Of a DNA stretch of 58,096 nucleotides, positions 31,055-58,096 are shown piece by piece (within the stretch, counting starts at the first letter, position 1; each line of letters starts with the position of its first letter). The position numbers and the translations under genes are program-made. The stretch is from positions 1 to 58,096 of IMG/VR virus record IMGVR_UViG_3300027609_000006; one strand, written 5' to 3'. The stretch is from a virus. Below the pieces are notes generated by a model, which saw only the letters and a program-made list of their open reading frames with translations, made no database searches and was not told the DNA's origin.

Positions 31055-31055
31055 T

Positions 31056-31357: not shown

Positions 31358-31891
31358 ATGGCAAAAAGCAAAGCCAGCAGACCGCGTCACGCGTCTGCCA
31401 AAGGTTCGCATCATCACAAGAGCTCGAATCCGCATAAGAAGCGGCGAAAAAATCCTCAGTTTCTCGGCACCGCAGTAAAGCCGATGAAAATGGTGGAACT
31501 GGTCGCCGGAGGTCTGGTCGGACTCGGGGTTAACAACCTCGCCATGGCCGCGCTTCCGACGGCGCTGACGGGTAATGCCTTCGGTGCAGTCGCCGGATCG
31601 GTGGTTATCGCGCTCGCGTCCGGCTGGGCCGGCGCGTTCGTCGATAAGGAATTCGGCGCGGCGATCGCGTTCGGCGGGCTCATGGCCGCCGGTCAGATCG
31701 CGATCAACCAATGGATTCCGTCCGTTGGTTCGACGATCGGACTGTCGGGCCGCGGCACGGGTGATTTCGTCGGCGGAAAAGTGGTACCGGGCGGGTTGCT
31801 CAGCTCGGGCATCACCATGAACGCAGGCGGCAATTCAATGGGTGGTGGTCCTACGAGCGCATATCCGGCTCCGTACGCCATCGCAGCGTAG
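31358..31891 (+). CDS. Basic N-terminus plus Gly/Ala-rich membrane protein (alternative start 31202)
   Basis: GGGAGGG lies 6 nt before ATG 31358. KKRRKNPQ, then hydrophobic segments. Carries the same VVPGGLLSSG motif as 25366..25836. Confidence 0.55.
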   Translation: MAKSKASRPRHASAKGSHHHKSSNPHKKRRKNPQFLGTAVKPMKMVELVAGGLVGLGVNNLAMAALPTALTGNAFGAVAGSVVIALASGWAGAFVDKEFGAAIAFGGLMAAGQIAINQWIPSVGSTIGLSGRGTGDFVGGKVVPGGLLSSGITMNAGGNSMGGGPTSAYPAPYAIAA

Positions 31892-31947
31892 CAGTGTTTG
31901 GGTCAACTGACTCCGAATAAAAAGAAAGGAAATCAGGAGAAACTATC

Positions 31948-32646
31948 ATGTCCATGTCCGCAGCAATGGCCCAGCAGGCCACGCAAACGGCGATTAACAA
32001 TGTGTCTGCCAATATGCAGGCCAACGCAGTCGCCGCCATCACCGCGCAACAGCAGTTCATTATCAATTCGTTCCGCGGTCAGATTTACATTTCAAACCAG
32101 CTTGACGTCGAGGACACCCCGCTGTACGACACGATCACGTACACCGCGGGCCAGTCGATCACCGGCAACCAGGGAGGCAATTCGTCCTGGTTCACCAACG
32201 TCGAAAATAGCTCCGGAAAGACGCTCGCTCAGACCAATATGACGCAGAACGGGAAACTGGACGCGCCCAAGGCGTTCTCGGTTTTCGGTATCCGGCTCAA
32301 CTGGTCCGAGGGGATTCTGCGCTCGGATCTGCAAACGCTGCTCGATAGTTGGGCTTTCGACTTCTGGCTGGGCGATAAGTCGTACCAGCGCGGAAATATC
32401 CGCCACTTCTCTTCGGGGATGGGGATTTCCGGCTACACCACCAAGACTGCGGAATCGTTCTACACCAACGGCCTGCCCGGCCGTCAGTCGATGAACATGC
32501 TGTCGGTGAAACTGGTGATCGCGAATCAGATGAGCTTCCAGGCTTATCTGACCGGCTCGAACACTGCGCAGGTGCTGTCGTCTTCAGGCGCCGGGCTGAT
32601 CTTCCTGTGCGAATTAGTGGGTCTGTTCGCTCGCGGCGTGCAGTAG
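31948..32646 (+). CDS. Candidate major virion (jelly-roll-like) protein
   Basis: Strong AGGAG 8 nt before the ATG, followed by a 136-nt non-coding gap. Beta-rich composition. Function is inferred only. Confidence 0.6.
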   Translation: MSMSAAMAQQATQTAINNVSANMQANAVAAITAQQQFIINSFRGQIYISNQLDVEDTPLYDTITYTAGQSITGNQGGNSSWFTNVENSSGKTLAQTNMTQNGKLDAPKAFSVFGIRLNWSEGILRSDLQTLLDSWAFDFWLGDKSYQRGNIRHFSSGMGISGYTTKTAESFYTNGLPGRQSMNMLSVKLVIANQMSFQAYLTGSNTAQVLSSSGAGLIFLCELVGLFARGVQ

Positions 32647-32782
32647 AATTGATCTGAGAGGTGGGAGCGGTAGTTCTGGGAGGAACGTTTCCACTTTTTG
32701 ATCTTCCCTCGGGTTCGCTTGGGGGATTTGAAAGAGAGGGTGGGGTGACATCACCTCCGAGTGTTACTCCGCCTTCTTTTTG

Positions 32783-32840
32783 TTTTGGCCTCACCGCTAA
32801 TCGATCTTTCGCATCAAGGCGGTGGGTTCGACATGGGAGG
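32783..32840 (+). repeat. SAR arm, F-form
   Basis: TTTTGGCCTCACCGCTAATCG..GGTGGGTTCGACATGGGAGG, 4 nt before GTG 32845. Confidence 0.9.
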
Positions 32841-32844
32841 TTCT

Positions 32845-33021
32845 GTGAACAGAACAGAGCAAATTCGGCAGTGGTTGAGCGTGGTTCTCGGACCCACCGC
32901 GCGGGTCGAAGCTTATTCACCGGAGTACGTCTGGCAGCGGTTCCGGGACATGTGGGGATTTTACGGCGTTGAGATCATGAGCGCGTGGGGCGCTCCGCCG
33001 TTGCACTTTACGATATTCTGA
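32845..33021 (+). CDS. Small hypothetical protein
   Basis: GTG start after GGGAGG. Sequence MNRTEQIRQWLS. Confidence 0.4.
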   Translation: MNRTEQIRQWLSVVLGPTARVEAYSPEYVWQRFRDMWGFYGVEIMSAWGAPPLHFTIF

Positions 33022-33035
33022 CGGGGAGAAAAAAC

Positions 33036-33218
33036 ATGGCACTCAAATTTGGTTCGCCCGCGTGGCGCAAGAAGTACGCACCTAAGAAGAAAAAGCGATC
33101 CGCGAACAAGAAGCGCAAACCGGCGAAACGGAAGACCGCCAAGAAAAAGCGGACACCGAATCCGTGGAAGCGGCCGAAGCAGGTGCGCGTCCGCAAGGGC
33201 AAATTGGAAGTTCGGTAA
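33036..33218 (+). CDS. Very basic 60-aa protein (DNA-condensing candidate)
   Basis: KKYAPKKKKRSANKKRKPAKRKTAKKKRTPNPWKRPK. Confidence 0.55.
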   Translation: MALKFGSPAWRKKYAPKKKKRSANKKRKPAKRKTAKKKRTPNPWKRPKQVRVRKGKLEVR

Positions 33219-33228
33219 CGATCCAGCG

Positions 33229-33284
33229 GGCGGTGTCGAGTAATCAAAACTTGGCCCTGCCGCGATTCAGAACGAGGCCAAATT
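33229..33284 (+). repeat. SAR arm, R-form
   Basis: GGCGGTGTCGAGTAATC..CAGAACGAGGCCAAATT, then ATG 33285. Confidence 0.75.
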
Positions 33285-33740
33285 ATGAGCACATATCCCA
33301 TCAACCAATTCGCACCAGACTATTTCCAGGGCCTCGCACTGGACCCGAACGCGTCTGTCGATCCCAAACCCTTCAACTACGTCTACAACCCGCCGAACGG
33401 CCAACTTACCGCAGATCAGGAGATCGACGGCGACACGGTCTCGATTCAAACGGACGCGGATTTCTACGCCTTCGGCTGGTACATCTCACTGTTCACTGGC
33501 GCGTTTCAGATCCGCCTCGCGGATTCGACCGGCTACCAGTTGCAAAGCGGCTTCATTAATTCGGGCGCGCTTTCGCAATCTTCAAACCAACCCACGGTGT
33601 TTTCGCCGGCGCATCTGTTCCCGGCTGGATCGAAGATCCTGATCGACATCGAAGATTTGTCGGATGCAACCAATCCGTTGCAAATCGTGTTTCCCGGTGT
33701 CAAGTTGTATAAGATCATTGGAAGGGCGGGGAAGGGGTAG
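33285..33740 (+). CDS. Beta-rich virion-protein candidate
   Basis: ORF track. FYAFGWYISLFTGAFQIRLADSTGYQL resembles the N-terminal half of 37227..38378. Confidence 0.65.
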   Translation: MSTYPINQFAPDYFQGLALDPNASVDPKPFNYVYNPPNGQLTADQEIDGDTVSIQTDADFYAFGWYISLFTGAFQIRLADSTGYQLQSGFINSGALSQSSNQPTVFSPAHLFPAGSKILIDIEDLSDATNPLQIVFPGVKLYKIIGRAGKG

Positions 33741-33750
33741 GAAGGTGTTT

Positions 33751-33808
33751 ATGTTGGCCTCATTCGAAACTGCGGACCTTCAAATCTCTCCCGTTCGACC
33801 AGGAGAGG
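33751..33808 (+). repeat. SAR arm, F-form (translated as an N-terminus)
   Basis: ATGTTGGCCTCATTCGAAAC..CCCGTTCGACCAGGAGAGG. GGAAGGTG lies 3 nt before the ATG. Confidence 0.85.
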
Positions 33809-33996
33809 TTATCCGGCTTGTAGCGGACGCAAGTTACAACGCAGGCAGCTCGGATGCGTGGTTTGTAGCAGCTTGGATCATGGCGGCGGGCGCGGCGTTC
33901 GCGATGTTCAATGCGGACAAACAGACCACGGCATTCATGGTCGGAGCGGCATTCGGATCGATGTGGAACGCGTACGACGCGGCAAGGAGTTCGTGA
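33751..33996 (+). CDS. Small membrane protein
   Basis: MLASFETADLQISPVRPGE.., then two TM segments. Confidence 0.55.
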   Translation: MLASFETADLQISPVRPGEVIRLVADASYNAGSSDAWFVAAWIMAAGAAFAMFNADKQTTAFMVGAAFGSMWNAYDAARSS

Positions 33997-34488
33997 GTGA
34001 GCACCGCACCCTATCCAATTCTCGACGGCTTCCGGCTCAATACGCTGCTGCGTTGCGATCTGACGTTCGGATCCATGGCCATCGATCAATACAACGCCTT
34101 GCGCCGCGTGCGCGCCTTTAGGTCCAAAGGCTGGTGCATCCCGAACGACACGCAATCGGAACTCATTCCCGCCTTCGACTCCTACGAGTATCAGGTCCAC
34201 ATGAAGCCTGGCTCCGCGATCTGGGGCTATACGTTCACTGGGGATTCGAGTGGCACGGATTCGTTTCAGGTGCGGGAGACGTGCACGGATGTCCCGTTGT
34301 TTTCCGAGGTTCTGACGAAGCAGCCGGAGACTGCGCCATTACTCGGAGAGGCATCCTGGGCTCAGCAGCAGATGCTTCCCAGTTTGTTGGTTGTTCCGGC
34401 GCCGGGCCTTTTGCACGTCGAGATTGCGACCACCAGCAGCACGCCCAGGGCGATTCAGCTTATTCTGTGGGGAGGGGAGCCTGCGTAA
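33997..34488 (+). CDS. Beta-rich virion-protein candidate
   Basis: ORF track, GTG start. Confidence 0.65.
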   Translation: MSTAPYPILDGFRLNTLLRCDLTFGSMAIDQYNALRRVRAFRSKGWCIPNDTQSELIPAFDSYEYQVHMKPGSAIWGYTFTGDSSGTDSFQVRETCTDVPLFSEVLTKQPETAPLLGEASWAQQQMLPSLLVVPAPGLLHVEIATTSSTPRAIQLILWGGEPA

Positions 34489-34832
34489 TGCTCACAGATA
34501 ACATTGATGTTTTGGCCTCGCCGGAATCAGGTGCTTCGCGTCCGGTTGAGAATGCTCGACAAGGGGAATTTCCTGACGCCCGTTATCAAGAGCGGTTTCA
34601 CCCTTTCGCCGGCGAATCAGAAAAACCATGCCTGATCTGCGGTGGAGAGCGAAAGCATAAATCTCACTACGATAAAAACGGATTTTTCGGCTATACAACG
34701 CTTGATGCAGCGCTGAATTCCACGGGCAGATGGGTATTCGAGACTAAGAAATATCCAGGACGGCCAAAAAGGGAGACTGTCGAACCCACGGCCTCCGACG
34801 AAGCTGGGGTTACCGGTGAGGCCAAACAATGA
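34488..34832 (+). CDS. Cassette ORF, zinc-ribbon protein
   Basis: TAATG overlap in. F arm near the N-terminus, CLICGGERKHKSH, R arm at the C-terminus (..TGEAKQ, ATGA overlap out). Confidence 0.5.
   Translation: MLTDNIDVLASPESGASRPVENARQGEFPDARYQERFHPFAGESEKPCLICGGERKHKSHYDKNGFFGYTTLDAALNSTGRWVFETKKYPGRPKRETVEPTASDEAGVTGEAKQ
34510..34567 (+). repeat. SAR arm, F-form
   Basis: TTTTGGCCTCGCCGGAATC..GAGAATGCTCGACAAGGGG. Confidence 0.8.
34774..34828 (+). repeat. SAR arm, R-form
   Basis: AGACTGTCGAACCCAC..CCGGTGAGGCCAAACA, then ATG 34829. Confidence 0.9.
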
Positions 34833-35152
34833 GATCGACCCACACCTACGTCACCCTCGAAATCAGCGCCGCCGGATACGATGAGATCGCGAAAAAGCTC
34901 CGAGACGCCGACTACGGCCACTGCTTCAACGCTGCGGGTGAAATCGACATGACAGGAATCGCAGTGATCCGCGCGGCCTGCGTTCGTGGCTGCGCGTTCT
35001 GTTCCTCGGCCGCGACATTCCCCGATGTTGATCTCTGCGATAAGTGCGCCGCCAAGTTCGCCGCCAAATTGAAGTCTCTCCCTGATTGGCCCTTAGCGCG
35101 AACGCAAGGGCAGTCGGCAGAGCACCACACTGAGGGGAGCGCCAAGCCATGA
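34829..35152 (+). CDS. Cys-containing hypothetical protein
   Basis: Contains CAFCSS..CDKCAAKF. C-terminus PLARTQGQSAE..EGSAKP is a d-type R arm. Confidence 0.55.
   Translation: MRSTHTYVTLEISAAGYDEIAKKLRDADYGHCFNAAGEIDMTGIAVIRAACVRGCAFCSSAATFPDVDLCDKCAAKFAAKLKSLPDWPLARTQGQSAEHHTEGSAKP
35090..35148 (+). repeat. SAR arm, R-form, d-type
   Basis: CCCTTAGCGCGAACGCAAG..GAGGGGAGCGCCAAGCC, then ATG 35149. Confidence 0.8.
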
Positions 35153-35376
35153 GTGATTCTGAGGCGGTTCGAACGCTGGAGCGACGTCAAAAGCATTTGA
35201 TCTCTCTTCTTGAGCCAAAACGCGGGTACGATGTGAATTCGCTACATTTCATTCGAGCCGAAGTTGCAGCGTTGTCAGTCGCTCTTTCGGCAATCGAGGA
35301 CCGTCGAAAACTTCTCCTGGTCGGACGCTTTACGCCGCACGAAGCCGCGCTGCCGACGGAGGCCAAAACATCATGA
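35149..35376 (+). CDS. Small hypothetical protein
   Basis: ORF track. Ends ..LLLVGRFTPHEAALPTEAKTS (R arm). Confidence 0.5.
   Translation: MSDSEAVRTLERRQKHLISLLEPKRGYDVNSLHFIRAEVAALSVALSAIEDRRKLLLVGRFTPHEAALPTEAKTS
35311..35372 (+). repeat. SAR arm, R-form (type specimen)
   Basis: CTTCTCCTGGTCGGACGCTTTACGCCGCACGAAGCCGCGCTGCCGACGGAGGCCAAAACATC, then ATG 35373. Confidence 0.95.
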
Positions 35377-36317
35377 GCCGCGGACTCGCAGACATCGTAC
35401 CCCTGAACATCCCCCCAGGAGCCGTAACCACACAAGCAGCGGGATGGTTAAACGGACCGGATGGAAACTGGTACTGGACAGGCTCCACTCCTCCCCCTTT
35501 GAATATCCCCATCACTTCCGGGCCGGGCATACCCTCAAACGCAGGTTGGGTCATTGCACCCAACGGACAACTGGTATGGACCGGCCCCGGCACTCAGCCG
35601 ACGATTCTTCCCGCGTCCGTGACGCCGCCGGGCAGCGTGATCTCCGTGCCTTCTGGTGCGCAAGGGCCGATCCTGAACTGGACGCCCCAGCCGCTGCTAC
35701 CCGATTCGATCCTTCCGCCGCCGCTACAGCGTTCGAACCCGCTGGCCGCACCTGCACAGTGGATTCCCAACAAATACGACTTCCAGATCATCGGAAGGGC
35801 CAAGAAATGGCAATGGGTCGCCGCGCACGGAGGCCTGAAGTCGTGCTGCCGTATCCCGGAGCTCGGCGCGCCAATTTACGATCTGCCGCCGTGGGAAAAG
35901 ATGCCGTCGAACAGCTTCGAATTCCAGGAAATGAATGGTTTGCCGATCGCAGATTTTCAGAGCGGTGGAATTTTCACAGGCGACGATGTCCTTATCCTAT
36001 CAATCCAGGTGCCTTCAGGTTACGACGGCGTCATCAACCGGTTCGTGGCCGGAACGACGGGAGTAACGGGCTACGCGGATTTCACGGATTCGATCAACTG
36101 GCGCCTGAAATACGGCATCCGCTATGCAAAGAACCTGGGCGATGTCGATAATACATTCGGATCGTTCAACAACGCTATCCAGGTTCCCCAGACGTATATT
36201 TGCCGGGTGATTTCCGGGCAAACAATCGAAGTTTACGCGAACGTGCCGGTGGGTTCCCCAATCGCGGGAGGCTCAATCAACGCCGGCGTTTTCGGATGGT
36301 TTTATCCGCGGCGGTAA
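35373..36317 (+). CDS. Beta-rich virion-protein candidate (314 aa)
   Basis: ORF track. Pro-rich N-terminus, then a beta-rich domain. Confidence 0.7.
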   Translation: MSRGLADIVPLNIPPGAVTTQAAGWLNGPDGNWYWTGSTPPPLNIPITSGPGIPSNAGWVIAPNGQLVWTGPGTQPTILPASVTPPGSVISVPSGAQGPILNWTPQPLLPDSILPPPLQRSNPLAAPAQWIPNKYDFQIIGRAKKWQWVAAHGGLKSCCRIPELGAPIYDLPPWEKMPSNSFEFQEMNGLPIADFQSGGIFTGDDVLILSIQVPSGYDGVINRFVAGTTGVTGYADFTDSINWRLKYGIRYAKNLGDVDNTFGSFNNAIQVPQTYICRVISGQTIEVYANVPVGSPIAGGSINAGVFGWFYPRR

Positions 36318-36343
36318 GGCCGCAAAGGAATAATGTTTATTTT

Positions 36344-36604
36344 ATGGCTATGCCCACTGACCAGCAAGTGAACAAGCTTTTCGATTTCCGGTTCAACATC
36401 ACCACCGTACTCTCCGTTTTCGCGATGCTCTGGGCGGCCGCGATGGGTATGGCGAAAATGGAGACGCAGGAAAGCCACGATAGGGACGTGAAGCGGATCG
36501 AATCCGACTACGTGCGGCGCGACGTGAACGACCTGACCGACCGCGAGCTACGGGAATGGCTTATCCGCATCGAGAAAAAGCTGGATGAGCGAAACCGAAG
36601 ATGA
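36344..36604 (+). CDS. Single-TM plus coiled-coil protein (holin- or spanin-like, speculative)
   Basis: ITTVLSVFAMLWAAAMGMA, then a charged helix. Confidence 0.5.
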   Translation: MAMPTDQQVNKLFDFRFNITTVLSVFAMLWAAAMGMAKMETQESHDRDVKRIESDYVRRDVNDLTDRELREWLIRIEKKLDERNRR

Positions 36605-36843
36605 CAGATGCCGTTCAAATTGAACTGATCCGCGCACTCGCTATCATCCCCGGATCGATTGGCGGAATTATAGCCGCATGGTTTTCATATAAGGCCGCGA
36701 CCCACGCTAAGGAAGCTGTGGATGTGGCGAAAAACGTCGAGAACAACACGAACGGCATGTCCCATGCGTTGAATGATCTCACGGCTAAGTCTTCATACGC
36801 GGCTGGGAGGCTGGATGAAAAAAACGAGGCCAACCAATTATGA
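36601..36843 (+). CDS. Small TM protein (holin-like, speculative)
   Basis: ATGA overlap with the upstream ORF. Contains ALAIIPGSIGGIIAAWFSY. Ends at GAGGCCAACCAATTATGA. Confidence 0.5.
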   Translation: MTDAVQIELIRALAIIPGSIGGIIAAWFSYKAATHAKEAVDVAKNVENNTNGMSHALNDLTAKSSYAAGRLDEKNEANQL

Positions 36844-36974
36844 GACGCATCTTTTTCGGATGCCTCTTCCTTTCTCTCTGCTGGTGCGGACGTGACGGCG
36901 TTCGCAGACAAGAGGGCGCTGTCGAGAAGTCACGAATTGACCAAGCCAAAAATCAGAGCGAGGCCAAAAAATAG
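36840..36974 (+). CDS. 44-aa putative lipoprotein (o-spanin-like, speculative)
   Basis: Hand translation MRRIFFGCLFLSLCWCGRDG..SEAKK. The stop TAG is formed at the junction with the TIR element. Confidence 0.3.
   Translation: MRRIFFGCLFLSLCWCGRDGVRRQEGAVEKSRIDQAKNQSEAKK
36915..36973 (+). repeat. SAR arm, R-form
   Basis: GGCGCTGTCGAGAAG..CAGAGCGAGGCCAAAAAATA. Its A-rich tail is the target of the TIR insertion. Confidence 0.75.
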
Positions 36975-38809: not shown

Positions 38810-39079
38810 TCAACCACAGGACTGCCCCGAAGACTTCGGCATATTCGAAGTGCGGACCATTTCCATGAGGTCCAGATTGTAAGCCGTGAGCTTACCCAAC
38901 CGGACATCAATGCATATTCCCGTCGCATCAAATGGATATTCGAAACCGTTCTCCAAAACACCGATTATGACTAGTTCCTCAGCCAGCGGAGGAACGCCCT
39001 TGATCCGAACCAATTCCTTCCCGCCCCGCGTCCTATACACGCATCCGATTGAGGATTCCCACGCTTTTCGATCAAGCAT
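38810..39079 (-). CDS. Hypothetical protein
   Basis: ATG follows GGAGGCCGAAGAAA. Confidence 0.55.
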   Translation of the reverse strand: MLDRKAWESSIGCVYRTRGGKELVRIKGVPPLAEELVIIGVLENGFEYPFDATGICIDVRLGKLTAYNLDLMEMVRTSNMPKSSGQSCG

Positions 39080-40133
39080 TTTCTTCGGCCTCCTTGGGAT
39101 TGAGTTTTGCAACCCGAGACTTTTCCGCCCGACCAGGAGGAGTACTGGATTGCAACCGCTGTTTAATTGTCTCCAGATCCAACATCGAATGCGGCCTCAT
39201 CGCCGGCAACTTCGTAATCTGTCGGCTAACACCATCCGGAGCCTTGCTGGAATCGTACGTCGTAATGCGCGGGAACCTTCCAGACTCCAAAACTCCCAGT
39301 TCGGGCGCCCAAATCCATCCTTCACCGGTTCGGAGGGAAGCCAGCGATCGCAGCATTTCCCTGCCCTCGTGCGGTTGTGCCCATTCCCCAATCCAATCCT
39401 CGATCGCGCGGCGGTCCTGGGGGGCGATCAGCCGCAATACGATCAGCGTTTCGGACTGAGTAATCGAATCTTTGTGGACTTTCGCCGGGCGTTGGGAAAT
39501 GAGGACAATTCGTAGGCCAATTCCACGGCCGAGACTAACCAGGTTGTTGGCAGCATCGAGCATCCGCACGCCGGCGGCATCCGATGGCCGGGCTTGCGGC
39601 ATGAACAGGTGCGCTTCGTCGATCATTAGCGTGAGTGGGCCGCGGTTCGTCCGCAGCAGAGTTTCCGCGAAATCCGCGAAGAACGTCGTGCGCTCCTTGA
39701 TGGTCATGATGCGGGTGTCTAGCACGGCGGACGTGTCGGTGGTCCCGATGATTTCGCCCAGCGCGGTGCCGTGATGGGGCAGCAGAAATACATCATCCGG
39801 CGGCCGCGCTATCGGATGAGGTAGGCCATGTTCTCGCCCAAACAGATAGATCGGGAATCCCGGCTTCTTTCCAGTCGAATCCGCTCGCAAGCCCCACCAG
39901 ACGCCCGTGGGATCGATCACGCAGAGGCGCCGGTGTTTTGCCAAGAGCAGTTCCGCGAAGCCTTTCGCTGCGTAACTTTTTCCCGAGCCAGTTTTCCCCA
40001 GAATCGCGATATGCTGCTCCAGTAGTTTCATGAACAGTGCGCGCCGCTGGATCGGATTGGCCGGATCTCCACCTTCGGTGAGTGTGGAGACGAGCTGCTG
40101 AGCTGCTCGGTGTAATGAGGAGAGGTCTTTCAT
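39072..40133 (-). CDS. FtsK/HerA-superfamily ATPase (candidate genome-packaging ATPase)
   Basis: Walker A ILGKTGSGKS. Walker B LTLMIDEAHLF. RIVLISQRP. Confidence 0.75.
   Translation of the reverse strand: MKDLSSLHRAAQQLVSTLTEGGDPANPIQRRALFMKLLEQHIAILGKTGSGKSYAAKGFAELLLAKHRRLCVIDPTGVWWGLRADSTGKKPGFPIYLFGREHGLPHPIARPPDDVFLLPHHGTALGEIIGTTDTSAVLDTRIMTIKERTTFFADFAETLLRTNRGPLTLMIDEAHLFMPQARPSDAAGVRMLDAANNLVSLGRGIGLRIVLISQRPAKVHKDSITQSETLIVLRLIAPQDRRAIEDWIGEWAQPHEGREMLRSLASLRTGEGWIWAPELGVLESGRFPRITTYDSSKAPDGVSRQITKLPAMRPHSMLDLETIKQRLQSSTPPGRAEKSRVAKLNPKEAEENA
39084..39142 (-). repeat. SAR arm, R-form
   Basis: Minus strand CTCCTCCTGGTCGGGCGG..CCAAGGAGGCCGAAG. Confidence 0.8.
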
Positions 40134-40825: not shown

Positions 40826-41241
40826 GGTTTAGCCTCCGTCGGCTTGGGAGTCTTCGCGCGAGGCTTTCGCGCCCGACCAGGAGAGGTTTCTGTCTCCGTC
40901 ATCACTCCTGCCAGGAATCCATTGATCGCCCCGATCATGAACAAACAAGACGCTACTGTATGGATAATCTGAAATGTTTCACCCCACGCCTTTTCAAATC
41001 CCTCCGTCGTCAACTCCTCGCGCTCTGAGTCCACCCAGTCTACGATTATCTTGAGTACATCGTCTGCTGAGCCAATTATGTTTCGCCGGTAGTCCTTGTT
41101 TTTTTGAAGAAACTTCGCGATCCTCTTTACCACGTCTTCATCTAATTCCGCGCCGCAATAACCAGCGTCCCTTAAGGCTTGCTTGAATTCCGGCCTCTCC
41201 TCCACGACCAGGGCGAGTGGATTTCTCTGCGGTTTTTTCAC
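40822..41241 (-). CDS. Hypothetical protein (C-terminal TM)
   Basis: GTG start 3 nt after the AGGAGAAGG of an F arm. Ends ..KPTEAKP. Confidence 0.6.
   Translation of the reverse strand: MKKPQRNPLALVVEERPEFKQALRDAGYCGAELDEDVVKRIAKFLQKNKDYRRNIIGSADDVLKIIVDWVDSEREELTTEGFEKAWGETFQIIHTVASCLFMIGAINGFLAGVMTETETSPGRARKPRAKTPKPTEAKP
40826..40887 (-). repeat. SAR arm, R-form
   Basis: Minus strand CTCTCCTGGTCGGGCGCG..GCCGACGGAGGCTAAACC, then ATG 40825. Confidence 0.9.
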
Positions 41242-41900
41242 AGTCCTTCTCCTGGTCGAACGATCCCGCTCCCAGTTGCAGCACCACCCTGCGATGAGGC
41301 CAAATTACTAAGCCTTTGAATTACCAGCCACACCCCAGCCCTGGACCTCCCCATCATCTTCGCAATCTCCGTGTCTGAAAGCCCCTGGTTGTGCAGATCC
41401 ATAATCTTCAACTCCTCAATCGGCGGGCTAGACTTGGGCCTCCCTAGCCGCACACCCTTCCGCCGCGCGTTGTCCAGGCCGGCCCTGACACGCTCCACGA
41501 TCATTTCCCGCTCGAACTCCGCGAAGGCTCCAACAGTTTGAAAGAAGAACCGGCCCATCGGTGTGGTGGTGTCGATGTCCTGGGTTGCGGAGATGAAATC
41601 GATGCCCAGTGCGCGAAACAACTCCAGGGCTTCCATCAGAGATTGGAGTGATCGGGCGAACCGGTCGAACTTCCAGACCAGCACGACGTCGAAGCGCTTC
41701 TGTTTCGAATCAGCCATTAATCGCTGGTATGCGGGTGCCTGCCCGGCCTTTCGTTTGGAAACCACTCCGGTCACCTGGTCGACGTACTGATTGAAGACTT
41801 CGAAGTTGCGGCGCTGGGAGTAGTCGATCAGGGATGTGATTTGAGAATCCGCTGATTGGTCTGAGGTCGAGACGCGAGCGTAGATCGCCACTTTTTTCAT
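41238..41900 (-). CDS. Small serine recombinase (resolvase/invertase family)
   Basis: VAIYARVSTSDQ, VWKFDRFARS, C-terminal HTH GLSDTEIAKMMGRSRAGV. The last ~20 aa are F-arm translation. Confidence 0.9.
   Translation of the reverse strand: MKKVAIYARVSTSDQSADSQITSLIDYSQRRNFEVFNQYVDQVTGVVSKRKAGQAPAYQRLMADSKQKRFDVVLVWKFDRFARSLQSLMEALELFRALGIDFISATQDIDTTTPMGRFFFQTVGAFAEFEREMIVERVRAGLDNARRKGVRLGRPKSSPPIEELKIMDLHNQGLSDTEIAKMMGRSRAGVWLVIQRLSNLASSQGGAATGSGIVRPGEGL
41245..41306 (-). repeat. SAR arm, F-form
   Basis: Minus strand AATTTGGCCTCATCGCAGG..GATCGTTCGACCAGGAGAAGG. Confidence 0.9.
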
Positions 41901-44739: not shown

Positions 44740-44968
44740 AAACCATCCTCCGCCACATCTGCCCATTGCAACTTCAGGTGACCGCGCGCGTCAAGCTGAA
44801 AGCGTCCGACCAGGAGAAGTTCTGAATCTTCACCGGAGGTTCTTGGGGGACTGTTGGCACCCGTCCTCCGGCGCGTTTGGTTCGGAGGACCGCGTCGGGA
44901 CCCGATCCAAAACTTTCTCCTGGTCGAACGCTCTGAACTCGATGGCTCACTCTTCCGAATGAGGCTAA
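44740..44968 (-). repeat. Complete SAR hairpin on the minus strand, with a ~95-nt apical insert
   Basis: Minus strand F: GGAATTAGCCTCATTCGG..GAGCGTTCGACCAGGAGAAAG. R: CTTCTCCTGGTCGGACGCTTTC.., with a degenerate 3' end GGCGGAGGATGG. Confidence 0.8.
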
Positions 44969-44971: not shown

Positions 44972-45931
44972 CTACTTCAAAACCGCATTCCCGGTCAACT
45001 TCGCGTTTCCTGTGATGCTTCCAAGTGGGTTTGCCACTCCCAGCGGGATTACCGTCCCCTGCTTTGCCTGCGTTGCCGTGTTCGTCGTGAGGATCGGCGT
45101 TGTCCACGTTGCCCAATTGTCGGTTGAAACGCTGTAGAACAATTGCCCGCCCGAGATGCTGTCAAAATCGAGATCGAGGAAAAGCCTCCAGCTGCTGGTA
45201 CCCGTCCGGACCAGCGCCGGGCCTTCCACGCACCCCTGACTGACCAGCCCGGCCCAATTACCGGTTTTCACGTTGGTGTACGTCCCCAAAAGCGTGGCGC
45301 TGCTCGCATATTGGATGTTGCAGGAGCCGTCCTGGAGTTTGTACCAGAGGTAGTAGGTGCCGCTCAGATAGACCGGGAAAACGTCGATCAGCGTGCTGAC
45401 TCCGGTAACCGTGACGGCCTGCACATTCGACCATGTGGAGAAATCCGCTGCCGTCGGGTGAATCTCAAAAACCTGGAAGTTGCCGCCGCCGTTGGTGCTG
45501 ATCGTCAGAAACACGTGCACCGATGCGAGGCCGGAGCCGTTCGGGTCAATAAACCATTCGGGCGCCCACGCGAAAACGGCGTTTGGAATGCCCATCGTGG
45601 TCAGGTCCAGAGTGGCGTGGGGTGCCCAGTTGATTCCGTCCGTTGAGTGTGACCAGGCGATGACGTAGGAGTTGGGCGATGAGCAACTGTTCGTGTGGAT
45701 CAGATAGTAGAGCCCAGAGTACGTCATGATCGACGGGTCGCGTGGGCCGTTTGTTCCTGGAGGTGGAGTCAGGCAGTCATAGGTAGGGCTTTGGGAGGTC
45801 CAGTTTGTCAAATCCGTTGATGTGAATACTTCAAAGGTGACGTTGGTTCCGGAGTCGGCAAAGGAGACTAATTCGTAGGTCGTTTGGGCGAATAGGGGGA
45901 GTGTGAGGAGCAGCAGGAGGAGGCTTTTCAT
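44972..45931 (-). CDS. Secreted GH43-like five-bladed-propeller glycoside hydrolase
   Basis: Signal peptide MKSLLLLLLTLPLFAQT. GPRDPSIM, WAPEWF, CVEGPAL. Confidence 0.6.
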   Translation of the reverse strand: MKSLLLLLLTLPLFAQTTYELVSFADSGTNVTFEVFTSTDLTNWTSQSPTYDCLTPPPGTNGPRDPSIMTYSGLYYLIHTNSCSSPNSYVIAWSHSTDGINWAPHATLDLTTMGIPNAVFAWAPEWFIDPNGSGLASVHVFLTISTNGGGNFQVFEIHPTAADFSTWSNVQAVTVTGVSTLIDVFPVYLSGTYYLWYKLQDGSCNIQYASSATLLGTYTNVKTGNWAGLVSQGCVEGPALVRTGTSSWRLFLDLDFDSISGGQLFYSVSTDNWATWTTPILTTNTATQAKQGTVIPLGVANPLGSITGNAKLTGNAVLK

Positions 45932-46230
45932 GGTTTGGCCTCCATCGGTTGATCGGCTTCGTGCGGCGTGCCGCGTCCGACCAGGAGGGACTTCAGTAGG
46001 TTCTCGAAGGAAACAAAAGGATGATCACACCAGTAGTCGGCGTCGTGACCAGGCCACAGTTCGGCGCGAAGGCAGAACTTCCCGTATTCGCGTTCATACC
46101 AGAAGCACGGAGGGCCGCCGTTCCTCACCACCTGCCCCCAGTCGGCGGCCTTTGCGGCTACCAGAAGTTGAACGTCTCCTGGTCGAACGCTTTCAGGTGC
46201 GGGTGTCTCGCTGCTCGATGAGGCCGACAT
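45928..46230 (-). CDS. Cassette ORF (100 aa) bounded exactly by an F arm and an R arm
   Basis: GGGAGGA lies 6 nt before ATG 46230. MSASSSS..ESVRPGD is F-arm translation and ..LLVGRGTPHEADQPMEAKP is R-arm translation. Confidence 0.55.
   Translation of the reverse strand: MSASSSSETPAPESVRPGDVQLLVAAKAADWGQVVRNGGPPCFWYEREYGKFCLRAELWPGHDADYWCDHPFVSFENLLKSLLVGRGTPHEADQPMEAKP
45932..45990 (-). repeat. SAR arm, R-form
   Basis: Minus strand CCCTCCTGGTCGGACGCGG..CCGATGGAGGCCAAACC, then ATG 45931. Confidence 0.9.
46173..46230 (-). repeat. SAR arm, F-form (translated)
   Basis: Minus strand ATGTCGGCCTCATCGAGC..AAAGCGTTCGACCAGGAGACG. Confidence 0.9.
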
Positions 46231-48903: not shown

Positions 48904-48918
48904 AGATGATCTATGAAT

Positions 48919-48978
48919 CCTTAGCGCGAACGGAAGTGCAGTCGCCCAAAACACTCAGACCGAGAAGAGCGCCAACAA
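48919..48978 (-). repeat. SAR arm, F-form, d-type
   Basis: Minus strand TTGTTGGCGCTCTTCTCGG..CCGTTCGCGCTAAGGATTC. Its 5' part encodes the peptidase C-terminus. Confidence 0.75.
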
Positions 48979-50076
48979 ATCATCTCCATTCGGTGCTCCC
49001 AATCCTGAACACGCATCCGGTCCTCTTCGTGCCGAGTACGTCCCATTCTCTCCCCGCGTGATGTCCACAAAGCAATTGGGATTCAGAAACAGCTTCGGAG
49101 TCACAAATCCCAGTTTTTTTCCGAACGACGCGAACAACCCCGCATACAGTGGCGCAACCGCGCTCGTGCCCCCGATCACTTGTGACTGACCATAGACCAC
49201 GATTTGATACCCAGTATTGGGATCGGCGTTGGCCGTGACATCGGGAACCATCCGACCCAATCCCGCCGGCGGCTTCGGCGCGCCAATCTGAAAACTCTGC
49301 ACCGGGAAGAACGTTGAGAACCCGCCACCTGTCCCTTCGCCATTAGTCGTTCCCGGATTGTTGTTCCAAACCGTTTCGGAGTTCGTGACCTTCGTGGTTC
49401 CTCCGCAACCAACCACATGGGGACAGGAAGCCGGCGCATCGACGTTTGCCGCATTTGGTCCGCCATCCGAGGAGTCGTTATCCCCCGCCGCCGCGAACAC
49501 CGCCATGCCCGCAGTAACGGCCGCCAGAGCCGCGCTCTCCATCTGCTGGAGCCCTGCGTTGCCCCAATCCGCTTCGTCAGCTCCCCAGGAGATCGAGCAC
49601 ACGTCGCAGCCGTCGTTCATTGCCGCAGTGAGAGCTGGTGCGATGTCTTGCGCCCAGTAGACGCGGATGTTCGCCTGTTTGCCGGTGGCGTGCTGGTAGG
49701 CTGCTGCTGCTACCTGGATGTCCAGCGCCACTTCGAAGTCTGCATCGTTCTGCGGGTTTTGCAGGGAGTTCTGTGTCCCGTCGACGGAGACGTCGGTGAT
49801 GTTGGGGACGGGTTGGTTGATCGATGCGAAGAACGCGGCCATGTCGGATTGGACCCAGCCGCCGCCCAGTTCGATGATCGCGATGGTTGCGCCGCCTGGT
49901 GCTGTGCTCACTGGGAAGTGGTAGGAACCTAAGAGGGTGGGGAGTTTCCAGGGGCCAGTGTGCGGGTTGGTGATGAGACGCTGGACTGCCGCCCATGCGG
50001 AATTAACATGCGGGGCTCTCTTGAAGTATGGATGGCATTTGATCTGCCGTTGGGTGGGAGAGGATTGGGAGTTCAT
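48955..50076 (-). CDS. Sedolisin/kumamolisin-like S53 serine-carboxyl peptidase
   Basis: DFEVALDIQ, CSISWG, IGGTSAVAPLYAG. Confidence 0.75.
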   Translation of the reverse strand: MNSQSSPTQRQIKCHPYFKRAPHVNSAWAAVQRLITNPHTGPWKLPTLLGSYHFPVSTAPGGATIAIIELGGGWVQSDMAAFFASINQPVPNITDVSVDGTQNSLQNPQNDADFEVALDIQVAAAAYQHATGKQANIRVYWAQDIAPALTAAMNDGCDVCSISWGADEADWGNAGLQQMESAALAAVTAGMAVFAAAGDNDSSDGGPNAANVDAPASCPHVVGCGGTTKVTNSETVWNNNPGTTNGEGTGGGFSTFFPVQSFQIGAPKPPAGLGRMVPDVTANADPNTGYQIVVYGQSQVIGGTSAVAPLYAGLFASFGKKLGFVTPKLFLNPNCFVDITRGENGTYSARRGPDACSGLGAPNGDDLLALFSV

Positions 50077-50683: not shown

Positions 50684-51712
50684 TTATATACATGAGTCCC
50701 GTGACATTGTGGTTTCAACGACTTCCCCTCTCAGTTCTGAAAATAACGAAGCGCGCAGGCAGTACGGGCTAAACCAGATTCTTTCCCGCGTCGAGTTCTC
50801 CCGCGCCGCGTTATCGCCCTGAGAGCCGTATCCGCCGCGCGCCTTCCACGGGATGCACTCCCAGGAAGTCGGCATGGCGTGCTCACCTTCGTAGCCGCAC
50901 AGCGCGATTCTGGCGCGGGAATCGTTACCCATTTCAATCGCCCACTCCCGGACGGCGTGTGCCACGTCTCCGCTGTCCTGCGAATAGAGGTCACTGGTCC
51001 GTTCGGCTTCGTCTGCGTAAGGCGGATCGAGGAAGACACCCGTAATGCCATGCTTGACCGTCACCGAAGGGCCGCACACCCGCTGCCAATCTCCGCAGCA
51101 TACCCTTACGCTCCGCAGCCGCTCGGCCAAGTCGCGCATATAGGCCAGCAATTGGCCGCGCCGCGTCCCCGAGGTGAGGTCGCTGGCGATGTCGCCCGTG
51201 CCCGCGTCCCCGAGGTGAGGTAGCTGGCGGTTTAGCCCTTTGCCCGCGTCCCCGAGGTGAGGTAGCTTACGATGTACGCCCGTGCCCGCGTTCCCGAGGT
51301 GAGGTAGCTGCTTCGCGCACCACCCGGCTCCGATCCAAATGCACTGTCCCCATACCCACCATCCTGCAATTTTGACATCATAAAACTCCGGGTCTACTTT
51401 CATTCGTTCGCGAAACTCAGCCTGCGAACAGAGCCATAAATGCCGGGCGTGTTGATCGGCTTCGTTCACCGGGTTGTCCGCGTGCTCTGCGACCGCCTCC
51501 GGTTCATGCTGGAGCGCCCGCCAGAAGTTCGCCACCAGACAATCGAGGTCGTTTATCGTCTCCGTGGACGGCGCGTGTGGACGATTCAGGAGCACCGCGC
51601 CGGAGCCAAAGAACGGCTCGACGTAGTTCTGAACATTGCCGAATCTCTCCCAGACCAATTCGGCAACACTCGACTTGCCCCCGAACCACGGAAATGGAGG
51701 TTTTAGGCTCAT
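50684..51712 (-). CDS. Dam-like (D12 class) N6-adenine DNA methyltransferase
   Basis: FPWFGGKS, EPFFGSGAV, FLDPPY. Has an internal 13-aa tandem repeat LPHLG(D/N)AG.G. The stop lies inside the left TIR. Confidence 0.85.
   Translation of the reverse strand: MSLKPPFPWFGGKSSVAELVWERFGNVQNYVEPFFGSGAVLLNRPHAPSTETINDLDCLVANFWRALQHEPEAVAEHADNPVNEADQHARHLWLCSQAEFRERMKVDPEFYDVKIAGWWVWGQCIWIGAGWCAKQLPHLGNAGTGVHRKLPHLGDAGKGLNRQLPHLGDAGTGDIASDLTSGTRRGQLLAYMRDLAERLRSVRVCCGDWQRVCGPSVTVKHGITGVFLDPPYADEAERTSDLYSQDSGDVAHAVREWAIEMGNDSRARIALCGYEGEHAMPTSWECIPWKARGGYGSQGDNAARENSTRERIWFSPYCLRASLFSELRGEVVETTMSRDSCI
51158..51312. repeat. 39-40-bp tandem repeat (3 good copies plus 1 degenerate) inside the MTase gene
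   Basis: Unit TGCCCGCGTCCCCGAGGTGAGGTAGCT plus a ~12-nt variable part. Confidence 0.75.
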
Positions 51713-53795: not shown

Positions 53796-53811
53796 CGGTA
53801 TCGCTCCAAAA

Positions 53812-53871
53812 CCCCACCTGGTCGAACGCCCTAAGTTGCGCGTAAAAACTCGATCCCGATGAGGCCAAATT
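53812..53871 (-). repeat. SAR arm, F-form
   Basis: Minus strand AATTTGGCCTCATCGGGATCG..GGGCGTTCGACCAGGTGGGG. Confidence 0.9.
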
Positions 53872-53887
53872 ATGCTCTTGCCTAAAT

Positions 53888-53904
53888 CTGTATACCTGTA
53901 TACC
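53888..53904. promoter_or_regulatory. Tandem CTGTATAC x2 (operator-like) in a divergent control region
   Basis: CTGTATACCTGTATACC, containing two GTATAC palindromes. Confidence 0.4.
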
Positions 53905-53932
53905 ATGGGAGTCATGAAAAAGTACACACTTA

Positions 53933-53993
53933 TTTTTTGGCCTCATTCGGCATGTGTTTTCACGCTGCCTTGCTCTCGTTCGACCAGGAGCGG
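53933..53993 (+). repeat. SAR arm, F-form
   Basis: TTTTTTGGCCTCATTCGGC..CTCGTTCGACCAGGAGCGG. Confidence 0.9.
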
Positions 53994-54020
53994 TTTGTGA
54001 TTCCAGGAGGAGTGTATCGT

Positions 54021-56381: not shown

Positions 56382-56438
56382 GCCATGTCGAACCCACCAA
56401 ACCTGACGTGAAAACGGATTAGCGGTGAGGCCAAACCA
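56382..56438. repeat. SAR arm at a convergent junction (R-form on the plus strand)
   Basis: CGCCATGTCGAACCCACC..AGCGGTGAGGCCAAACC. Confidence 0.85.
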
Positions 56439-56449
56439 TCCAAAAACGC

Positions 56450-57058
56450 CTACCTGGCAATCGCCCATCCACCCACCAACACGAGAGCCAACCCTCCGAC
56501 CAGCACTCCCCAGTCGGTGTCTGTGACTCCAGAGAAGTCTCCGGATGAGATTGCAGTTCCCAGATCGCTAAACGCCGTGTCCACCGAATCAAACACCCCC
56601 GACGTATCAACCGCCGGCACTCCCGCGGTTGCGTTTCCTGCCAGCGCATCGGCAATTGTGCTGTCTGGTGATACTCCGAGTGCGCTCGCGATCGTGTTGG
56701 CGTAGGCGGTGGGATCGTTCCCCGTCGGATTGCCGTTTGCGTCGGTTGCTGGCGCATACTTCGCCATCATCTGATTGATCGTCAGTCCCTGATTCGCGTA
56801 GGTTTGGATTTGGTTGACCAGCGCCTGTTCGCCGGCATCGTAGGTCGAAAAGGACGCGTAGTAGTATGGTGTACCCTTCATCGCAGGACCTTGTGTTGCT
56901 CCCGATTGCCCCATGTAGATCAGATTTCCCGGGTTGTTATTCGAATATGCCAGTGAGCCGGGATAGTAGCCTTCTACGGTTTGGATGGTCGAGGCGATGG
57001 TGGAGATGGCGGGTGATGTTTGTCCGAATCCTGAGAGGCCGATTAATCCGATGAGCAT
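56450..57058 (-). CDS. Tail-anchored protein with EG..NNPGNL domain (paralog of 10018..10377)
   Basis: N-terminus MLIGLIGLSGFGQT, then VEGYYPGSLAYSNNNPGNL, C-terminus WGVLVGGLALVLVGGWAIAR. Confidence 0.65.
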   Translation of the reverse strand: MLIGLIGLSGFGQTSPAISTIASTIQTVEGYYPGSLAYSNNNPGNLIYMGQSGATQGPAMKGTPYYYASFSTYDAGEQALVNQIQTYANQGLTINQMMAKYAPATDANGNPTGNDPTAYANTIASALGVSPDSTIADALAGNATAGVPAVDTSGVFDSVDTAFSDLGTAISSGDFSGVTDTDWGVLVGGLALVLVGGWAIAR

Positions 57059-57116
57059 GGTTTGGCCTCAGCGGGCAATGTGGCTTCGTGCGTCGTCTCG
57101 CGTTCGACATTCGAAG
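57059..57116 (-). repeat. SAR arm, R-form
   Basis: Minus strand CTTCGAATGTCGAACGCGAG..CCCGCTGAGGCCAAACC, then ATG 57058. It starts 3 nt after the tRNA 3' end. Confidence 0.9.
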
Positions 57117-57119
57117 TGT

Positions 57120-57194
57120 TGGAGCCTCTCCCGGGAATCGAACCCAGAACCTCCTGATTACGAATCAGGTGCTCTACCCTTGAGCTAGACAGGC
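57120..57194 (-). tRNA. trnT: tRNA-Thr (anticodon CGU), CCA encoded
   Basis: Minus strand GCCTGTC-TA-GCTC-AAGGGTA-GAGC-A-CCTGA-TTCGTAA-TCAGG-AGGTT-CTGGG-TTCGATT-CCCGG-GAGAGGC-T-CCA. Folds as a cloverleaf with one G-G mismatch in the acceptor stem. Confidence 0.9.
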
Positions 57195-57207
57195 CTTCTT
57201 CGAACGC

Positions 57208-57238
57208 ATTGTAACCAAACACTTTTATGGCATCGCAA
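57208..57238 (-). promoter_or_regulatory. Candidate promoter for the tRNA
   Basis: Minus strand TTGCGA-N19-TACAAT, with the -10 box 13 nt upstream of the tRNA 5' end. Confidence 0.35.
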
Positions 57239-57268
57239 ATAGGACACCAGCCGATAGGACACCAGCCG
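57239..57268. repeat. 15-bp perfect tandem duplication ATAGGACACCAGCCG x2
   Basis: Immediately upstream of the candidate tRNA promoter. Confidence 0.8.
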
Positions 57269-57458
57269 AAGGATGCTGGCATGGCGAGAACGAAACGTCT
57301 ATCCCGTATCAGTCGATTTACGACGCTCATCAGCCGATTGTGACGGGCACCTGGATTTCTATTCAACTGATCGCGGAATCGCTTGTCCCGTTTCTGGACC
57401 CCAACCAGTAGATAATGCTGGATGATGTGGCCTTTAGTGCAGAAGCGAAGCTTTATGC

Positions 57459-57516
57459 CGGCATGTCGAACGCTCCAAACTTCTGACGAAGCGCTCGACT
57501 GCGATGAGGCCGACAT
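57459..57516 (-). repeat. SAR arm, F-form
   Basis: Minus strand ATGTCGGCCTCATCGCAGTCG..GGAGCGTTCGACATGCCGGC. Confidence 0.9.
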
Positions 57517-57522
57517 AAAGAA

Positions 57523-58089
57523 TTAGGATTTGGCAGCTTCCGGAAGCGACGCGACCTGACGCTGTGCCGTGTCTCGTTCCTCGATGATCCGGGTGATTCC
57601 AGCGGTTGCGGTTTCGCCCTCTTTCAACTCGGGAACGAGCACTTCGCGGATGTGCCAAAGCAGCTCGGTTTGATCAGAGTGCGCGTCCCGTTCATCAAGA
57701 ACCCGAGTCAACGTATCCACCGGGGTTTCGTCGCCTTGCTTTTTGTCTTTCAGCAACTCGCACAGTGCCACACAGAGGATCTGGTTTTCGAGCACTGCCG
57801 AATTAGCTGTCGTGTCGATCGCGGCGGCCGGCGGCTCGGGATCCGGTTCGGCTTCCTGCGAAATCACGGTCGCCAGGTCGAACGAACTCCCCACACCTTC
57901 GTTATGCAGATAACGGCCGTCGTTGGACCAGGTCGCTTTGGACTCGATGTTGATACCGTTGGCTTCGTAGATGCACCCGTCCCAAATGCGCTTCTTGATC
58001 TCTTCCCCGCCTACTTTCTCGGTGACAAAGTGGTACCCGTCGATTTCGACCACGCGGTTATTTCGGGTGGAGTAGCGGCCGCGTGCCAT
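57523..58089 (-). CDS. Hypothetical protein (188 aa)
   Basis: ORF track. Its first 92 nt are repeated at 1..92 because of the terminal overlap. Confidence 0.65.
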   Translation of the reverse strand: MARGRYSTRNNRVVEIDGYHFVTEKVGGEEIKKRIWDGCIYEANGINIESKATWSNDGRYLHNEGVGSSFDLATVISQEAEPDPEPPAAAIDTTANSAVLENQILCVALCELLKDKKQGDETPVDTLTRVLDERDAHSDQTELLWHIREVLVPELKEGETATAGITRIIEERDTAQRQVASLPEAAKS

Positions 58090-58096
58090 GGGTGCC
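57998..58096. repeat. Terminal direct repeat, right copy
   Basis: Identical to 1..99. Confidence 0.95.

Follow-up and report, generated by a model that had tools for sequence, protein, structure and literature searches.

The 58,096-nt viral DNA analysed here (positions 1 to 58,096 of IMG/VR record IMGVR_UViG_3300027609_000006; hereafter the window) carries a tRNA-Thr(CGU) gene between two copies of a ~65-nt repeat, termed arms: an inverted F arm next to a conserved upstream gene (up202) and a sense R arm next to a lysin-like gene. We consider it probable (about 0.6), from comparison with related genomes, that this tRNA is genuine accessory cargo in a hypervariable, arm-bounded slot, and that the arms serve as expression adaptors and as homology sites. 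The comparison covers eleven distinct genomes and shows a slot whose content has been replaced many times while its F arm stayed orthologous. It also shows that relatives differ in gene content at junctions marked by arms. The window represents a 57,997-bp, circularly assembled genome (positions 1-99 are the same as 57998-58096) and belongs to a previously undescribed family of circular virus-like genomes of ~58-63 kb.

A preliminary description of the region had listed eight items in order on the minus strand, namely the stop codon of the upstream gene, 6 nt, the F arm, about 260 nt with a tandem duplication and a promoter-like pair, the tRNA, 3 nt, the R arm and ATG 57058. All eight are present in the sequence (Table 1). 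The tRNA itself is genuine and is the sole tRNA of the window: ARAGORN reports it with anticodon CGT, and it matches Rfam family RF00005 over the full length (1-71) with 62.4 bits (gathering score 29, E 3.5e-11). It carries the threonine identity pairs G1-C72 and C2-G71, with one G.G mismatch in the acceptor stem. The 3 nt that had been placed between tRNA and R arm are an encoded CCA (57120-57122), which abuts the R arm. The codon read by the CGU anticodon, ACG, is the commonest threonine codon of the genome (39.5%). An exact 40-mer of the tRNA had no match in IMG/VR.

On the upstream side, the stop of up202 is as described (TAA, 57523-57525), but its true start lies beyond 58089. The protein has 202 residues and begins at an ATG at circular position 58131 (window position 134), so that the gene wraps across the contig join. 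The stop is followed by the 6-nt spacer TTCTTT; ATGTCGGCC begins at 57516, and on the gene strand the F arm opens with ATGTCGGCCTC, 6 nt past the up202 stop. The leader between F arm and tRNA resembles nothing in the relatives or elsewhere in the window, whether compared as DNA or as protein (blastn, tblastx). Its 15-nt duplication, also found by TRF, is polymorphic, being single-copy in the 99%-identical variant L165, and overlaps a weak terminator-like hairpin (57269-57247, terminator scan). The promoter-like pair is present as letters, with its 3' limit 13 nt from the tRNA 5' end, but its spacer is too long, the usual sigma-70 spacer being 16-18 nt, and a sigma-70 scan called nothing there or anywhere in 56400-58096. 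In the variant P0001, known as protein only, all three substitutions fall within the promoter-like stretch. The R arm terminates in GAGGCCAAACCATG, which gives a Shine-Dalgarno (SD)-like GAGG 7 nt upstream of the lysin ATG.

Table 1. Features of the tRNA slot and of its two flanking genes, in window coordinates.
Feature	Position	Strand	Basis and remarks
up202, upstream conserved gene	57523..58089	-	Gene calls on identical contigs, translation; 23 homologues, 45-99% identity
F arm	57453..57518	+	Inverted relative to local genes; nhmmer 57461-57518, 22.7 bits, E 4e-6
tRNA leader, ~260 nt	57195..57452	-	Unique sequence
15-nt tandem duplication (CGGCTGGTGTCCTAT)	57239..57273	-	TRF, 2.4 copies, 95% matches
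Promoter-like pair TTGCGA (57238-57233), TACAAT (57213-57208)	57208..57238	-	19-nt spacer
tRNA-Thr(CGU)	57120..57194	-	ARAGORN; Rfam RF00005
R arm, sense orientation	57056..57120	-	nhmmer 33.4 bits, E 1.9e-9
Lysin-like gene, 202 aa, N-terminus MLIGL	56450..57058	-	PHROG matches: endolysin, transglycosylase families
Slot-spanning 157-codon open frame	57043..57516	-	From F-arm ATG, through tRNA, to 13 nt beyond lysin ATG

An arm-motif scan of IMG/VR returned family contigs of 63.1, 59.9, 41.2, 41.5, 22 and 12 kb, and the slot was recovered from relatives using the up202 protein as anchor. In all eleven genomes the F arm is orthologous, lying 4-13 nt past the stop of the up202 homologue and opening with ATGTCGGCCTC. 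The content that follows differs widely, the protein cargo alone comprising six unrelated ORFs of small or medium size. The window and L165 hold the tRNA-Thr and its leader, relative A an open reading frame (ORF) with a CxxC...CxxC motif, relative B a ~190-aa gene, L042 a ~83-aa ORF, L166 and L168 a 60-aa cargo, and L173 a CxxC ORF with a 60-nt tandem duplication. L169, L172 and L174 have non-coding DNA only (52-112 nt), and in L171 the slot is empty, the F arm running directly into the lysin start (TGATG) with the R arm absent. In a multiple alignment, whose F-arm side comprises four genomes, similarity stops at the F-arm GTTCGAC and resumes at the R-arm GTCGAAC. The slot is thus an arm-bounded hotspot of cargo exchange. 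In L166 and L168 the segment from F arm through cargo to R arm is 95-100% identical while the flanks are 30-50% identical, a signature which points to the module having been transferred recently, as a whole, by recombination. Between the window and relatives A and B, junction length differs in 27 of 32 junctions with arms and in 4 of 14 without (Fisher p = 4e-4), in a comparison that is confounded, because arms themselves add length, and whose individual comparisons are non-independent. Orthologous arm pairs are also kept between genomes (74% identity over 175 nt), and arms occupy orthologous positions in genomes whose proteins are just 50-65% identical.

The proposal that the arms define a unit of gene acquisition is therefore supported as far as swappable cargo is concerned, and is not upheld as a strict unit of F arm, cargo and R arm. 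In L171 only the F arm is present. A weakly scoring tRNA-Met-like gene of relative A (39.5 bits) lies between two R arms, both in sense orientation, upstream of a 689-aa gene. A tRNA cluster in L172 ends 12 nt before an R arm and has no F arm. The number of tRNAs among family members ranges from 0 to 5.

The L172 cluster (1418-1842) comprises five tRNAs (Thr-CGU, Gln-UUG, Lys-UUU, Glu-UUC, Pro-UGG) in the slot upstream of the up202 homologue, a slot that in the window holds a glycosyltransferase and small ORFs. A common origin of its tRNA-Thr(CGU) with that of the window was considered and is not shown, as the D and anticodon arms are alike and the acceptor and T arms differ. We also observed a conserved non-coding interior (ATCGGnTCCCGACGCGG...CCAAACGCGCCGGAGnACGGGT...CTCCGGTGAAGA) at window 44827-44906 and in relative A (L036 9269-9382), in different neighbourhoods; in relative A it directly precedes the tRNA-Met-like slot. 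The first ~49 codons of a small gene (window 34829-35152) occur at positions shifted relative to conserved neighbours in relatives A (L034 6731-6868) and B, in the latter twice (L014 1660-1803 and 2962-3108), a pattern that indicates cassette shuffling or duplication within the structural block.

To describe the arms as a family, a profile built from 39 seed copies was run with nhmmer over both strands of the window. This search gave 61 copies of ~65 nt in 58 kb, on both strands, far more than chance would produce, with the consensus cCTCCtgGTCGAACGC - variable - gaCGCGAAGc - variable - GAT GAGGCCAAA nnAT(G). Arm orientation alternates at 48 of the 61 transitions (permutation p < 5e-5), and most arms thus form inverted pairs. 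The interiors of these pairs range from ~10-20 nt (three cases, a value that depends on the drawn arm ends) to more than 1 kb. Those of 80-500 nt mostly hold small ORFs, several with CxxC motifs, and an inverted arm pair frames the tRNA just as it does these ORFs, as had been proposed. The three 'empty' pairs form F-loop-R units of ~150 nt (17824-17968, 21240-21390 and 31053-31204), with 9-12 nt between full-length arms, or 14-19 nt between nhmmer matches. At least six related contigs carry arms at a density of ~1 per kb; unrelated contigs have none. Against 185,579 bacterial and archaeal genomes, the arm pattern gave single chance matches only, in unrelated taxa.

The ~60 arms of each genome occupy stop-to-start gaps. 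On the gene map of the window, drawn with a crude codon-usage caller (90 gene calls), the GAGGCCAAA end of an arm always abuts a gene end. In sense arms this end precedes the start codon, GAGG standing 7 nt ahead of it; in antisense arms it lies directly after the stop codon or overlaps it. Both arm ends carry SD-like sequence, GAGGCCAAAnnATG at one and CTCCTGG (CCAGGAG on the other strand) at the other. The CTCCTGG end is the inner one and faces the interior, and its other strand reads GTTCGACCAGGAG, a good SD that is used by interior genes. CCAGG(A/T)GAGG precedes the GTG at 8456 and the L171 lysin, and GAGGCCAAAnnATG stands before many genes. Many arm outer ends overlap a stop or start codon, and many F arms elsewhere open with TGATGG, a stop/start overlap. 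Serving as SD and start/stop signals places the arm ends under functional constraint. The preliminary description had set a unit of acquisition against a mere translation signal; this contrast is a false one, because neighbouring genes use the SD-like sequence at the arm ends.

The arms are linear sequence modules, not matched hairpin ends. They are ~55% identical to one another, with a mean column identity of 64%. Partner arms, at 44-60% identity, rank no better than random arms, and thus give no sign of matched ends. RNAalifold found no consensus pairs in 53 arms, and inspection of the conserved blocks revealed no dyad symmetry beyond TCGA. Two candidate foldings were rejected, a helix between GTCGAACG and nTTCGAT (52% paired, equal to shuffles) and a closure of 5' CCUCC with 3' GGAGG (67% versus 65% in shuffles); a long stem is possible only between adjacent inverted arms, via conserved blocks. 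A conserved coding segment was likewise rejected family-wide, as the GTCGAAC-GAGGCCAAA spacing of 38-42 nt has no mod-3 preference (14/23/15). Sigma-70 sites in 17000-36900 numbered 6 versus 8.5 expected, with none within an arm. 

Two arms at 53807-53997 stand face to face between divergent genes, with their GAGGCCAAA ends inward and 56 nt apart. Nowhere else do arms point away from both of their neighbouring genes; the pair encloses the direct repeat CTGTATAC CTGTATAC and is unusually alike (67% identity, rank 4). A second start-associated repeat family (CCCTTAGCGCGAACGGAgGGGCAGtCGGC...GAGGgGAGCGCCAAaCCATGA), 60-82% identical and also ending at ATG, has copies at 6481-6545, 8014-8078, 35090-35154 and 48918-48982. 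The gene of a small serine recombinase lies between arms too, with an R arm on its upstream side and an F arm on its downstream side.

An open frame starting at the F-arm ATG crosses the whole slot, tRNA included. It had been described as a probable artefact of the stop-free arms. That reading stands insofar as the frame has no coding signature: its per-codon coding score is -0.018, compared with a minimum of 0.040 among the 90 crude gene calls; a search of 5.8 billion proteins returned its own cluster only; and two close variants (L165, P0001) differ from it by 6 non-synonymous and 1 synonymous changes and 1 indel. It is very unlikely that the 157-aa ORF encodes a functional protein. The arms do not account for all of it, however, as the 334-nt interior including the tRNA is also stop-free in this frame, the other frames having 6 and 9 stops across the ORF span. 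Only 0.8% of dinucleotide-shuffled window interiors stay open (p about 0.008). Moreover, in 12 of 12 sequences the frame that begins at the F-arm ATG runs open through the entire slot, whatever the cargo, with lengths of 22 to 219 codons and stops at -9 to +16 nt relative to the lysin ATG. Other tRNA-bearing slots in relatives contain 4-8 stops in every frame. In 23 sense arms, an uncontrolled count gave 32 of 69 frames that end -16 to +20 nt from the next start codon; the downstream gene's own frame is one in three, so this corresponds to roughly 32 of 46 non-gene frames. We propose that ribosomes may be relayed through the slot, such that up202, slot and lysin would be translationally coupled and the frame would be kept open for this reason. 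This is a warning for annotation, as gene callers report arm-to-arm ORFs such as this one, which crosses the tRNA.

A second slot whose F arm opens with ATGTCGGCCTC lies at 45928-46230 (minus strand). There a 100-codon ORF runs from the F-arm ATG via a Cys-rich interior to a TGA that overlaps the ATG of a GH43-like gene (ATGA).

We suggest that the arms act as linear-sequence adaptors for expression and translation coupling, so that anything between them would be expressed. As conserved patches amid unrelated cargo, they might double as homology sites, at which general recombination between co-infecting relatives would swap, add or delete the intervening DNA, a role already proposed for the promoter-early stem-loop cassettes of T4-type phages. 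The tRNA and its unique 260-nt leader may have entered the window lineage once, via illegitimate recombination, and the tRNA may have been retained because ACG is the commonest threonine codon of the genome. Transcription of the tRNA probably occurs as part of the operon, or else starts at a weak dedicated promoter, after which RNase P and a 3' nuclease would release it. Several points weigh against this scheme. No promoter for the tRNA was detected by the sigma-70 scan, and the conserved slot-spanning frame is not predicted unless translation coupling through the slot is added. The recombination proposed for cargo exchange is read only from mosaic patterns, and the breakpoints of the L166/L168 segment fall outside the arms, one inside the upstream gene and one just past the lysin start. 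The junction comparison has the confounding and non-independence noted above. Finally, variable genes without arms exist (e.g. 27082-27282), and arms are thus not required for gene turnover.

Other explanations were weighed against the reading of the tRNA as cargo between adaptor arms. The arms might be pure expression signals, that is 5' untranslated regions or ribosome-binding sites, possibly with a non-sigma-70 promoter, in which case the tRNA would be merely intergenic, as phage tRNAs usually are, and the slot variation ordinary mosaicism. Arms do occur at conserved junctions too, with orthologous pairs retained, their SD-like ends stand at canonical spacing from start codons, and some variable genes lack them. 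We nonetheless consider this explanation unlikely: antisense F arms point into gene 3' ends and cannot be own-strand 5' untranslated regions, a strict alternation is unexpected for promoters in one-directional gene blocks, content differences are enriched at arm junctions, and the slot has at least 8 different states, all ending at arm edges. Alternatively, the 157-aa ORF could be a real translated gene, with the tRNA-like sequence embedded or secondary. Its 474 nt open across the tRNA, the rarity of open shuffled interiors, the equivalent ORF that stops near the lysin ATG in all 12 sequences, a 15-nt indel that keeps the frame, and a CxxC motif in relative A that is reachable only from the F-arm ATG would fit such a gene. 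With a coding score under that of every crude gene call, no proteins outside its own cluster, mostly non-synonymous variant changes, tRNA slots full of stops in relatives, and a 62-bit tRNA bearing an encoded CCA and the identity pairs of threonine, a real gene is very improbable.

The arms could also be targets of their own site-specific recombination system, either one resembling integrons or one that relies on the serine recombinase at 41238-41900 (minus strand), with an enzyme inserting, excising or inverting cargo and the tRNA being a captured cassette. This recombinase has a Resolvase N-terminal domain (1.7e-40) plus a helix-turn-helix and is 63-65% identical in relatives A and B. The arms are mostly inverted pairs, cargo boundaries coincide with inner arm ends, 'empty' pairs exist, and the two direct arms around the relative A tRNA are an arrangement that a resolvase could excise. 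The arms themselves, however, show neither a dyad-symmetric core beyond TCGA nor a conserved attC-like hairpin, and partner arms are no more alike than random ones. No tyrosine recombinase or IntI was found among the ~30 largest proteins scanned (Pfam/PHROGs), a subset of the ORFs. Four 100%-identical assemblies are collinear and show no inversion isomers, which is weak evidence as assemblies collapse minor isomers. The single arm without cargo in L171 and the L166/L168 breakpoints outside arms also argue against such an enzyme, and we judge its involvement quite unlikely. Finally, arms might be the inverted terminal repeats of a selfish element resembling a miniature inverted-repeat transposable element (MITE), made of F arm, short loop and R arm, in which cargo accumulated later. 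The three 'empty' units of ~150 nt, the high copy number and the alternating orientation recall such elements. Copies are only ~55% identical, though, and partners are not co-similar; arms sit at orthologous positions in divergent genomes, single arms are common, no transposase was found, and the arm ends serve as SD and start/stop signals. An origin of this kind is highly unlikely.

A broader and rather unlikely view is that the arms form a genome-wide cassette-docking system, into which any cargo could be plugged between conserved genes with operon expression intact. The F arm would then give a start codon overlapping or closely following the upstream stop, plus an inner SD, and the R arm, next to the following SD and ATG, would close the non-gene frames with stop codons. 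Ribosomes would be relayed through any slot content, even a tRNA gene, which would explain the open frame in the 12 sequences. Cargo exchange would be arm-specific and possibly catalysed by the conserved serine recombinase. If true, docking would amount to an integron-like gene-capture platform across a whole viral chromosome. The gain and loss of small accessory genes in viruses of bacteria is usually inferred from mosaics with no visible sequence 'socket'; in these uncultivated 58-63-kb circular genomes, ~60 arm copies per genome mark such sockets. One slot followed through eleven genomes thereby offers a natural series for asking whether conserved regulatory repeats drive modular exchange. 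The same series bears on whether a repeat can act as a two-way translation adaptor, and on whether an RNA gene can be carried inside a stretch that must stay translatable.

Among known systems, the closest analogue of the arms is the promoter-early stem-loop (PeSL) regulatory cassette of T4-type phages, and to our knowledge repeat-driven modular exchange of the PeSL type has so far been documented only in T4-type phages. PeSL is a short composite intergenic motif with ~50 copies per genome, which reaches from a stop codon to the SD and start of the next gene and clusters beside small ORFans in variable regions (Arbiol et al. 2010, PMC2839356). It consists of a sigma-70 promoter and a stem-loop terminator, in gene direction, and comparative genomics implicates insertion, deletion and replacement of genes between copies (PMC2839356; Comeau et al. 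2014, PMC4122927). Arms share with PeSL the stop-to-start span with an SD at the 3' end and the enrichment at variable genes and indel boundaries. Unlike PeSL, they lack a sigma-70-like site and a conserved stem-loop, occur mainly in inverted pairs of alternating orientation, and have SD-like sequence at each end. Mini-circles and promoter activity belong to PeSL, whereas arms are known from sequence alone.

The arms also resemble integron arrays, in which mostly small, often promoterless and unrelated cargo is lined up between conserved repeats, with only short end motifs conserved around a variable middle, and with array content that differs among relatives. The GTCGAAC/GTTCGAC block of the arms is presumably similar to RYYYAAC/GTTRRRY, with one mismatch, a likeness that we take as a lead only. 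An attC site, however, is an imperfect palindrome that forms a single-strand hairpin (R''-L''...L'-R'), a fold that arms do not have. Integrons carry one attC at the 3' end of each cassette in uniform orientation, whereas each cargo here has two inverted arms in alternation, and arms are spread around a whole viral genome, conserved genes included. As regards multiple inversion of the Gin/Min type, a serine recombinase gene is present in the window, but dyad-symmetric half-sites and inversion isomers were not found there. Correia and MITE elements are similarly short, abundant, intergenic and co-transcribed, have inverted ends and can supply expression signals; arms differ from them in showing no evidence of transposition, unmatched partners and orthologous positions. 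The tRNA resembles accessory phage tRNAs in that only one tRNA is carried, for the codon used most often within its family (ACG), and that tRNA content varies among relatives. It differs in lying in a repeat-bounded slot that holds protein genes elsewhere, and within a conserved open frame.

A purely functional resemblance exists to the start-associated sequences (SAS) of Cluster K mycobacteriophages, 13-bp repeats (GGGATAGGAGCCC) with an SD-like core located 3-8 bp upstream of starts (Pope et al. 2011, PMC3203893). They number 11-19 copies, nearly always in one orientation, and the extended form (ESAS) adds a local 17-bp inverted repeat with a 4-13-bp spacer; SAS are conserved across subclusters even before unrelated genes, and are thought to be translational (PMC3203893). 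Like SAS/ESAS, arms are SD-like, phage-family-specific repeats found at many starts. They differ in sequence, in length (~65 nt), in number (~60 copies), in occurring in both orientations and at stops as well as starts, and in enclosing cargo of up to more than 1 kb.

The contigs L001-L003 are 100% identical to the window, making four records from at least three different samples, and no recent indels are thus visible in them. L004 and L005, two distant relatives, have a lysin of 43% identity but neither arms nor a tRNA. A tblastn search of 50,697 isolated-phage records gave a single match, at 33% identity, and among the ~30 window proteins scanned none had a PHROG or Pfam match to capsid, portal, tail or terminase proper. 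The window encodes a HerA/FtsK-type ATPase (39072-40133), a subtilase, glycosyltransferases, a GH43-like protein and a D12 methylase, and has the appearance of a very poorly charted virus or virus-like replicon.

The lysin next to the slot is modular across relatives, as seen at the loci compared (window 56450-57058 on the minus strand, L040 ~5283-5947, L042 from 2338 and L168 3195-3824). Its MLIGL N-terminus and hydrophobic C-terminal tail are constant while the middle domain is swapped, being transglycosylase-like, SLT (Pfam, L168 3195-3824) or, in L042 and by eye only, M23-peptidase-like in motif. A 42-nt tandem repeat (51161-51310, 3.6 copies, 86% matches) lies within an ORF with a D12-class methyltransferase domain. 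Lastly, a divergent intergenic region at 10842-11070 contains about six 21-nt direct repeats (TCGGCAGAATCTCCCGGTACG) followed by an ACAG microsatellite. This array resembles iterons or an operator array and is possibly a replication origin.

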